A model generated the notes under the pieces. The model was given only the letters and a program-made list of their open reading frames with translations, was not told where the DNA came from and made no database searches. The position numbers and the translations under genes are program-made. 12,340 bases of DNA from Bdellovibrionia bacterium. Its GTDB lineage: Bacteria > Bdellovibrionota > UBA1018. This document shows, piece by piece, positions 1,978-5,426 of this stretch (position 1 is its first letter; the number at the start of each line of letters is the position of its first letter). The stretch spans positions 1 to 12,340 of the forward strand of contig JBMSSC010000084.1 in the NCBI GenBank assembly GCA_049424145.1, in the 5' to 3' direction.

Positions 1978-2285
1978 TCGTTCTTTGATATCACAGGTAC
2001 AAAGTTCCCCCGTTAGCAAAAGATCGCGCAAAACTGATGAGGGGGTGAAATCTGTGAAAGCACGAAGACGGTTTTAGAAACTTGGCGCTTCGTGAGTTCG
2101 AGATGACAAGTTTCTAAAAACGTCACCCACGGAAGGTGGGAAAGTGCGCGCAGAGGGCAGAATCAGTCAAGATGAGGATGAGATATTCCGAAAACTGCAA
2201 GCCCGGAGAAACGCGAACCGGGCTAATCCCCGGGAAGCTCTGGTCTTTAGGCCGGAGAGCTCTTCACGAAATGAAGGAGATTCAA
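1978..2285 (+). ncRNA. Putative structured ncRNA or cis-regulatory 5' leader, family not recognised
   Basis: Six consecutive stem-loops read by eye: TCACAGG 1991-1997/TCTGTGA 2051-2057 enclosing CCCCCGTTAG/CTGATGAGGGG; an 18-bp IR at 2067-2084/2107-2124 (1 mismatch); CCCAC-GGAAG-GTGGG 2126-2140; AGCCCGG/CCGGGCT 2200-2224; CTCTGGTC-TTTA-GGCCGGAG 2238-2257; CTTCA-CGAAA-TGAAG 2262-2276. G-U pairs and A-rich loops favour the + strand. Confidence 0.5.
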
Positions 2286-2774: not shown

Positions 2775-3929
2775 TTGAAAAAACACTACTTACTTGCACC
2801 TGGTCCCACTCCCATCCCTGAATCCGTCTTAGGCATTTTTGCTCAACCCATCATTCACCATCGAACTCCCGGGTTTCAGAAACTCTTTGAAGACGTGCAG
2901 CAGAACTTAAAATACGTGTTTCAAACTCAGCAAGAGGTCTTAGTCCTCTCCGCGACAGGTACGGGCGCTATGGAGGCAGCTCTGAGCAACCTCTTTTCTC
3001 CAGGCGACTCAGTGATTGTTGTTCAGGGCGGCAAGTTTGGAGAGCGCTGGGCTCAGTTAGCCCGGGTGTTTGGCTTAGAACCTCAGGTCATCCGAGTGGA
3101 GCCAGGTTATGCGATTCAACCCCAGGCACTCCGGCATGGGGTTGAAGCCCATCCTCAAGCGAAGGCTATTTTATTTCAAGCCTCCGAGACATCCACCGGG
3201 GTTCAAATGCCCACCCAAGAGATCTGCCAAATTGCGCGTGAAGCCGGAATGCTCTCCGTATGCGACGCGATTACGGCCTGTGGGGTCTTTGATTTGCCCA
3301 TGGACCGGTGGGGAATCGATGTATTAATCACGGGTTCTCAAAAGGCCATGATGATCCCCCCAGGGCTTGCCATGATTGCCCTCAGTGAGCGAGCCTGGGC
3401 TCAAGCCGAAATCTCACGCCTGCCTAAGTTCTACTTTGATCTCAAAAAAGAGCGAAAGGCTCAAAAAAAGGGACAAACCGCATGGACACCGGCCATCTCG
3501 CTGATTCAAGGCTTGCATGAAAGCCTCAGACTCATGCGCGAAGAAGGACTGGAGGGGATTTTTGCCCGTCATGCGCTGCTTGCCAAAGCCACTCGAGCCG
3601 GGGTCGAAGCACTGGGCTTGACCCTTTTTGCCCAAGACAGTCCCTCTCCTGCCGTCTCAGCGGTGCGAGTTCCCCCCTCCATCCCAGATGGAAAGAAAAT
3701 CCCCTCCCTCATGCGCAATCGGCATGGAGTCACCATCACCGGAGGGCAAGACGAGCTTGAGGGCAAGATCTTTCGCCTCTCTCATTTTGGGTACTGCGGT
3801 CCTTTTGACATCACCACGGGACTGGCCGCATTGGAGTTAGTCCTCCACGAGCTTGGACATCCGTTGGTCGAGTTTGGAAAAGGCGTAGGAGCCGCGCTTC
3901 GCGTTTTTTCAGAAGCGGATAAAAAATGA
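2775..3929 (+). CDS. Class V PLP-dependent aminotransferase (alanine/serine-glyoxylate, serine-pyruvate aminotransferase family)
   Basis: LLAPGPTP, HHR, GTGAMEAA, GKFGERW, SETSTGV, DAIT, PLP-lysine motif GSQKAMMIPPGL, FYFDL, GGQ..L.GKIFRLSHFG. Probable TTG start at 2775 after SD GAGGA (2763-2767); the ORF track starts at ATG 2754. Confidence 0.93.
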   Translation: MKKHYLLAPGPTPIPESVLGIFAQPIIHHRTPGFQKLFEDVQQNLKYVFQTQQEVLVLSATGTGAMEAALSNLFSPGDSVIVVQGGKFGERWAQLARVFGLEPQVIRVEPGYAIQPQALRHGVEAHPQAKAILFQASETSTGVQMPTQEICQIAREAGMLSVCDAITACGVFDLPMDRWGIDVLITGSQKAMMIPPGLAMIALSERAWAQAEISRLPKFYFDLKKERKAQKKGQTAWTPAISLIQGLHESLRLMREEGLEGIFARHALLAKATRAGVEALGLTLFAQDSPSPAVSAVRVPPSIPDGKKIPSLMRNRHGVTITGGQDELEGKIFRLSHFGYCGPFDITTGLAALELVLHELGHPLVEFGKGVGAALRVFSEADKK

Positions 3930-5350: not shown

Positions 5351-5426
5351 GAGTCCATAGCTCAGCCGGTAGAGCAATACACTTTTAATGTATGGGTCGA
5401 TGGTTCGATTCCATCTGGACTCACCA
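5351..5426 (+). tRNA. tRNA-Lys (anticodon UUU)
   Basis: Full 76-nt cloverleaf: acceptor GAGTCCA/TGGACTC, D arm GCTC/GAGC, anticodon arm ATACA-CTTTTAA-TGTAT (TTT at 5384-5386), T arm GATGG-TTCGATT-CCATC, discriminator A and encoded CCA at 5424-5426. Confidence 0.98.

Follow-up and report, generated by a model that had tools for sequence, protein, structure and literature searches.

PATEs, the gene-less mini-elements of the IS200/IS605 family, were described in haloarchaea (Dyall-Smith et al., 2011, PMC3119063), and both a transcribed PATE (PMC4615843) and stand-alone omega-RNAs (PMC10691335) have been reported. In Geobacillus stearothermophilus, it was proposed that TnpA mobilizes protein-free omega-RNA copies of the ISGst elements and that TnpB uses them in trans, and the principle of DNA guide pairing is set out in the same preprint (Meers et al., bioRxiv 10.1101/2023.03.14.532601). 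The omega-RNA of ISDra2 TnpB has also been described (Nakagawa et al., 2023, PMC10097598), and in the same phylum as the DNA studied here one further system is of interest, merRNA, one RNA of 445 nt in which a riboswitch can be recognised (Karunker et al., 2013, PMC3627812).

The locus analyzed here lies in a stretch of 12,340 nucleotides from a Bdellovibrionia bacterium (contig JBMSSC010000084.1), referred to below as the window. An earlier note, made from the letters of the window alone, had proposed a novel multi-hairpin RNA at positions 1978–2285, between a sigma-54 activator and a hypothetical gene. The present analysis indicates that the region is very likely a non-autonomous IS200/IS605-family element (PATE) that has lost both genes and consists of an IS605 left end, a structured spacer of ~175 nt and, from a tnpB element, the omega-RNA together with the right end. 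The features of the locus are as follows:

150–1940, + strand: sigma-54-dependent activator with AAA+ and Fis HTH domains (Pfam PF00158, E 2.9e-68, and PF02954); its variable C-terminal tail is interrupted by the element
1902–2267, + strand: putative gene-less IS200/IS605 mini-element (PATE, family I); nhmmer model positions 1–364 map to 1903–2267, the left boundary being eroded and the right one exact
2268–2285, + strand: host flank between the element and the ATG, with TGA at 2272–2274 and the AGGAGA ribosome-binding site at 2275–2280
2286–2714, + strand: conserved 142-aa Bdellovibrionota hypothetical protein; 438 homologues, with a shared N-terminal start that places the true start at 2286

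The strong folding proposed for 1978–2285 was reproduced (-104.2 kcal/mol, z -3.71, 0 of 100 dinucleotide shuffles as good), and the hairpin at 1991–2057, the long stem at 2067–2124 and the short downstream hairpins were all present in the MFE structure. The minus strand of this region also folds (z -3.12). None of the known Rfam families reached its gathering score there, and the sole overlapping match was Transposase-2 at 2208–2261 (23.7 bits, with the cut-off at 42.7; E 0.32). When permissive thresholds were applied to the window, 12 family-I loci and 6 further loci, nothing but tRNAs exceeded the cut-offs; one tRNA gene is located at 5351–5423 of the window (+ strand, 74 bits), between purA and an ORF labelled by eye as CheX-like. 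The boundaries of the unit had to be redrawn from 1978–2285 to about 1902–2267, that is, from inside the last codons of the activator to 18 nt before the ATG at 2286.

These 18 nt read GAAA-TGA-AGGAGA-TTCAA, and the last codons of the activator (LARNPPSPEGG) together with its TAG stop (1938–1940) are supplied by the left end of the element. Judging from the sequence, the TGA/AGGAGA of 2268–2285 is probably the original stop-RBS junction of the activator; we infer that the element landed in the variable tail of this gene because 2268–2285 resembles the stop-AGGAGA-ATG junctions of two orthologous loci (L038 and L032). A longer ORF starting with GTG at 2136 passes through the element and into the 2286–2714 gene, which is followed in the locus by a class-V aminotransferase gene and purA. 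No Pfam family above the cut-off was found in the 2286–2714 protein; a homologue is present in 58 of 61 genomes, and several of the 438 homologues are named Bdellovibrionota, in agreement with the lineage that had been guessed from the letters. The protein shows a lysine-rich N-terminus, an acidic middle and a nearly invariant SFKNFRHHPDMENFYRFI.ENDLRHEAL segment, and its gene occurs once per genome in the order (40 of 40 high-quality genomes), nearly always directly downstream of the sigma-54 activator.

To compare the locus with its relatives, 30 orthologous loci were returned and 29 were retained once that of the window's own genome was left out. The element was absent from all 29, all of them in other genera (best nhmmer E 0.2), and conservation of a leader at orthologous loci, the point on which the earlier proposal had staked itself, was thus not observed. 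The activator was located upstream of the 2286-gene orthologue in 28 of the 29 loci. The gap between the two genes ranged from -4 to 65 nt in 23 of the 26 loci with a called start, and the remaining three contained 279–678 nt of unrelated sequence. At the right junction, a contig from a second study (record 14 of sequencing run X2) spans 2162–2347 without any difference, and in runs X1 and X3 loose contig ends fall exactly at 2267 with other flanks. Record 3 of run X1 reads 1943–2135, also without difference. No joint of a same-species empty allele was seen in four sequencing runs, and since the listed sequencing pieces do not cover 1811–1942, the left junction is without read support.

Dispersed copies were detected by a DNA search of 61 genomes, which gave matches in the window's own genome only (11 matches). 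With an iterated nhmmer profile, 26 matches at E<=0.05 were obtained in this genome; subtracting 5 cross-hits to another family left 21 pieces, and as two loci were split in two, these correspond to ~19 loci. Nine copies of family I are near-whole, with a mutual identity of 58–86%. The copies adjoin unrelated ORFs, the downstream ORF lying on either strand. With crude ORF calls, eight of the nine near-whole copies are co-directed with the nearest upstream ORF; for tnpB, the absence of such a bias is reported by Meers et al. (bioRxiv 10.1101/2023.03.14.532601). A relative's metagenome contig (L067) also contains a diverged gene-less copy of family I, at another locus. This contig carries tandem units of ~49 nt (1600–1790) just upstream of the PATE copy, and repeats of 8–9 aa within a methyltransferase-like ORF (3135–3440).

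The termini of these copies were inspected at 10 left and 11 right junctions. In the window copy they are:

1902–1943, + strand: left end, with a T-tract, the guide-position tetranucleotide CAAC (1913–1916) and a sub-terminal hairpin (1914–1938)
2234–2267, + strand: right end, with the guide GAAG (2234–2237), a hairpin (2238–2257) with a TTTA loop (2246–2249) and the terminal TTCAC (2263–2267)

The flanks at the junctions are unrelated, and neither target duplication nor terminal inverted repeats were seen. Nine of the 11 right ends terminate in TTCAC after GAAG and the TTTA-capped hairpin, and eight of the 10 left ends are preceded by TTGAT (five) or TTGAA (three), the exceptions being the window copy and C94. 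The window copy is devoid of the TTGA(A/T) target and of ~5–8 first bases that are found in other copies. Under the pairing rule for the guides of IS608 and ISDra2, GAAG fits TCAC, and CAAA or CAGA fits TGAT. At the left end, the CAAA/CAGA guide expected from this rule fits in four of the five TTGAT copies; the expected CAAT guide is missing in the three TTGAA copies and also in the window copy, which has CAAC. The two hairpins at 1914–1938 and 2238–2257 constitute near-terminal palindromes. The right end is common to the full IS605 elements L069, L098–L100 and L105, its GAAGCTC...TTTAG...TTCAC form being present on L098, L099, L100 and L105, and the left-end layout TTGAA...CAAT-hairpin also occurs in L098 and L105. 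By this architecture, the ends of the element are IS200/IS605 ends. The 366 bp of the element contained no Pfam family in 15 translated frames and no TnpA or TnpB score above those of shuffled sequences. None of the nine copies had a self-target (TTGAW plus 12-nt flank).

As PATEs are defined in the available text of PMC3119063, the element is one of them. It differs from those elements in its host, Bdellovibrionota instead of haloarchaea, and in a covarying module common to families with different ends, a feature that is not described in that text. With the PATE-like ISGst elements of G. stearothermophilus it shares TAM/TEM ends with DNA guides and the TTCAC terminus; by contrast, active tnpA and tnpB are described in the same genome for ISGst (Meers, bioRxiv 10.1101/2023.03.14.532601), whereas none cognate or intact was found here and the copies are 58–86% identical.

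The origin of the 3' half was then traced to tnpB, and the corresponding feature is:

2122–2267, + strand: predicted TnpB omega-RNA (reRNA) scaffold, from collinearity with the tnpB 3' end in genome G091 (L069), pair counts and the independent model R2

Among 74 family genomes, a clear DNA match to 2100–2267 was found in G091 alone (E 4.2e-6), and this match is the tail of a tnpB (PF07282, PF01385) followed by its right end; the G091 tail aligns collinearly with 2122–2267 (nhmmer E 3.9e-10). Weak DNA matches in G035 and G077 were dropped, as nhmmer gave E>=0.12 or nothing. One frame of 2122–2267 still reads THGRWESAR, to be compared with THGTWESAR in the tail of a related TnpB. The predicted stems of the scaffold are located at 2127–2139, 2147–2150/2212–2215 and 2155–2158/2201–2204, with a hairpin at 2218–2233, and a predicted pseudoknot pairs GAA 2140–2142 with 2263–2265. 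When an ISDra2-like structure was imposed on 14 sequences (8 gene-less copies and 6 full elements), 79% of cells were paired and 22 of 32 pairs showed two-sided change (no shuffle of 500 as high; slid controls 27–49%); such shuffle controls overstate covariation, because the sequences are related and the structure was chosen by the analyst. In the own-genome copies alone, 89% were paired with two-sided change at just 4 of 32 pairs. The pseudoknot was 100% paired in 7 copies and nearly invariant, and it is therefore uninformative.

Additionally, a non-circular test was carried out with model R2, built from six distant full elements without any PATE and without G091. Over the whole genome at E<=1 it gave two matches, both of them family I copies ending at TTCAC (E 0.002 and 0.075). 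G091 was matched at E 5e-9, but three matches outside any element outscored the window copy, which reached only 9.6 bits (E 0.51). Rfam Transposase-2 (RF03015) gave 8 matches in the genome, among them the final ~55 nt of five family-I copies; all 8 fall below the gathering score (best 25.3 of 42.7 bits). As judged from sequence and modelled structure, 2122–2267 is a TnpB omega-RNA scaffold. It has in common with the ISDra2 omega-RNA, in the structure description available for the latter (PMC10097598), the overlap with the 3' end of tnpB, the TTGAT target, nested stems, a pseudoknot between a terminal UUC and an upstream GAA, and a UUUA tetraloop near -20; it differs in its length (~145 nt against 116 nt), in the extra hairpin at 2218–2233 and in the TTCAC end. 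The full IS605 elements of the related TnpB clade (L069 of G091, L098–L103 on plasmids and L105 of G400, a relative in the phylum) share the right-end architecture and a collinear omega-RNA, and differ in that they carry tnpB, most also tnpA, and are without the 5' module described below.

Since the minus strand folds too, and IscB omega-RNAs start at the transposon right end (Meers, bioRxiv 10.1101/2023.03.14.532601), an IscB/IsrB-type, HEARO-like omega-RNA read on the minus strand from the right end was also considered. It is extremely improbable: the HEARO model and, for an IStron, the group I intron model gave no match in the window or in 12 copy loci, the consensus fold of 1940–2125 in 8 copies favours the + strand (-19.8 kcal/mol against -8.1 on the minus strand), and in G091 the 3' half trails a tnpB on the + strand.

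A point against the PATE reading is the 5' half, which is not accounted for by remnants of tnpA or tnpB. The best score for such remnants was 4.7 bits, with 5 of 50 shuffles as high and no Pfam match, so that they were set aside as unproven; TnpB-like words read by eye are YRFYPT (minus strand) and LKFRYP (in a second family, family II, presented below). The features of this half are:

1944–1972, + strand: weak promoter-like TTGCCT-17-TAAAAG, a candidate read by eye inside the element and not called by the consensus scan
1977–2067, + strand: conserved 5' module, with boxA-like GTTCTTTGATA at 1980–1990, a stem at 1994–1998/2050–2054, an internal loop and a stem at 2006–2013/2037–2045
2067–2124, + strand: second long stem, ~9 bp of it conserved among copies and the rest specific to the window copy

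In the consensus of 1940–2125, 87% of pairs were formed (0 of 500 shuffles as high). An alignment of 14 sequences of the 5' module gave 89% of cells paired and two-sided change at 9 of 13 pairs, again with 0 of 500 shuffles as high. The model of the module matched 18 places in the window's own genome. Among 74 family genomes it was present in two: G073 has it in three PATE copies, and G095 once, in a context that is not a PATE. It was not found in 150 phylum-wide genomes, and no full IS605 element matched it at E<0.8. The G095 copy (C281; L121:1500–1685) has no PATE left end, lies ~120 nt behind an ORF that resembles an IS4-type transposase by eye, and is followed by further hairpins up to the contig end.

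Two other PATE groups with different ends have the first 90 nt of the 5' half as well, in the same position behind the left end. The first group, family II, is younger and of higher copy number, with a TTAT-type target and a GTCAA end. Its members are ~415 bp long and mostly 88–98% identical; 20 left-end and 16 right-end matches were found, and the family breaks the assembly at many contig ends. Its left end shows a 71% match over 70 nt to the tnpA element of the same genome, and its members terminate in GGATGTCAA. The second group consists of older relatives of family II, which also occur as gene-less copies in another genus (L120, L123 and L125 of G073). Copies in the window's own genome are:

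C70:11451–11863 (L112), + strand: family II
C114:7810–8178 (L113), - strand: family II
C2:38620–39040, - strand: older family II relative
C27:18040–18440, + strand: older family II relative
C48:2440–2800, - strand: older family II relative

The module begins GTTCTTTGA(A/T)A, which resembles the boxA of Myxococcus (GCTCTTTGAAA) and of Bacillus (AUGAUCUUUGAAA) as these are given in the available literature text. Set against GCTCTTTGAAA / GNTCTTTAANA, the candidate word at 1980–1990 is GTTCTTTGATA, and it occupies the same position across PATE families. Only this fixed position counts, because the boxA-like word is common in the genome (58 seen against 55 expected) and decayed in some copies. At the end of another contig (C77:1–200, - strand), a promoter-like TTGCAC-17-TAAACC was observed together with TGCTCTTTGACAAT; by sequence, this would probably be the leader of an unassembled rRNA operon. 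A thin literature search found nothing that joins boxA and TnpB, which is not proof of absence from print. A wider proposal, which we put forward as speculative and on balance doubtful, is that Bdellovibrionota PATEs are modular, self-sufficient guide-RNA cassettes. Their 5' expression module (promoter, boxA antiterminator and covarying stem-loop) would be retained, or exchanged among IS605 families that differ in ends and omega-RNAs, and would allow an untranslated guide RNA to escape Rho over its full length, like rRNA and CRISPR leaders, and to serve TnpB in trans.

Covariation in the 5' half, the significant folding of 1978–2285, the module copy outside a recognisable PATE in G095 and the precedent of merRNA in the phylum (PMC3627812) could all be read in favour of the earlier interpretation of a novel riboswitch, leader or merRNA-like stand-alone RNA. 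Structured non-coding sequence is indeed present, with folds that covary across copies. The proposed riboswitch, leader or merRNA-like RNA is not supported, because the sequence is absent at the orthologues, multicopy beside unrelated genes, bounded by IS200/IS605 ends and homologous in its 3' half to the 3' end of tnpB, and we consider this reading very unlikely. The claimed echoes of c-di-GMP-I and B12 riboswitches were not recovered, as the c-di-GMP and cobalamin models of Rfam matched neither the window (E<=10) nor any of 12 copy loci (E<=5). The word GCAAAA does occur twice in the window copy, but it is not conserved: the c-di-GMP echo is copy-specific, because the first GCAAAA is found in the window copy alone among 8 aligned, the others having at this position a 4-bp hairpin of the GCRA-(R/C)GA-TYGC type. 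Similarly, the 18-bp stem at 2067–2124 exists in the MFE structure of the window, and only ~9 bp of it persist in the 8-copy consensus structure. The promoter placed just before the region was not called by the promoter scan either; the scan lists no site at 1940–1978, and its single match, at 1854–1883, is at chance level (1 found against 0.6 expected). A hammerhead-like CUGAUGA...GAAA at 2034–2050 was rejected, being present in the window copy only. With merRNA the element shares the phylum, a similar size class and a GCAAAAC-like word; unlike that single RNA, it is multicopy and mobile, and without an Rfam riboswitch match (PMC3627812, as far as its available text goes).

Moreover, the assembly and several collections were searched for the parent of the element. 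Neither a cognate TnpB, with the G091 protein as query, nor an intact TnpA was found in the assembly, where five Y1 transposase matches and five other TnpB-domain matches were detected; those of the latter with readable ends differ from the end of family I. Because the assembly (95% complete, 193 contigs) is interrupted at repeats, absence of TnpB and TnpA from the genome is not established. The longest tnpA of this genome (C10:4136–4459, - strand) carries a frameshift close to its 5' end and has an end that matches another PATE family; the longest tnpB (C157:3558–4664, - strand) has an internal stop and a non-TTCAC end. The tnpB of G091 in L097 (1650–1890, - strand) is decayed at its 5' end. 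The tnpA elements of the own genome were rejected as the parent, having a different end and matching family II instead. No full-length element combining this left end with this right end, as a parent would, was found in plasmids, phages, viral contigs, metagenomes or genomes. Blastn against plasmids and phages gave no match, and no TnpB was confirmed in viral contigs. The candidates from pattern scans were discarded: 15 viral matches were unrelated by nhmmer, one metagenome match was L067, another gene-less copy, and one genome match was short and attributed to chance.

From IS605 biology, the PATE reading suggests the following course of events. A TnpA acting in trans would have peeled the top strand out at TTGA(T/A) and TTCAC by means of the sub-terminal hairpins and guide tetranucleotides, and the single strand would have been pasted 3' of a TTGA(T/A) target without duplication, here in the C-terminal tail of the activator. 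The target, the initial bases of the left end and the former activator tail may later have been lost through a small deletion. Transcription of the + strand might come from read-through of the activator operon or from the element's own weak promoter, and 2122–2267 would then fold as an omega-RNA. Its guide would be the host flank from 2268, which could lead a cognate TnpB, acting in trans, to alleles left empty by excision. To judge by its sequence, the window copy is probably immobile, because its left junction has been lost, and the scaffold is most likely an orphan today, because the assembly yielded no cognate TnpB; it is unlikely that a nuclease is still loaded by this copy.

A copy of the same origin could also have been co-opted by the host, so that its internal promoter, boxA-like motif or stems set the expression of the hypothetical-aminotransferase-purA genes. 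The insertion lies inside an operon that is tightly coupled in relatives, the RBS has been kept, no + strand terminator is present in the element, and the right junction is identical in the sample of the second study. In its folding the window copy also equals the best copies (z -3.0), and its two long stems contain fewer imperfections than those of other copies. However, quasi-palindromes can lengthen through replication errors without selection; the element is in none of the 29 relatives and its other copies adjoin unrelated genes. Co-option is regarded as improbable.

These results remove a false riboswitch candidate, whose structure stems from a transposon end and a TnpB guide scaffold, and add to an already described kind of element a PATE family of Bdellovibrionota, for which TTGA(T/A) is the predicted target. 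Of interest to specialists is the 5' module of 90 nt, which three PATE groups have in common in spite of their different ends. Should this module be a promoter-plus-boxA cassette, it would account for the production of RNA from protein-free omega-RNA elements after loss of the tnpB mRNA.
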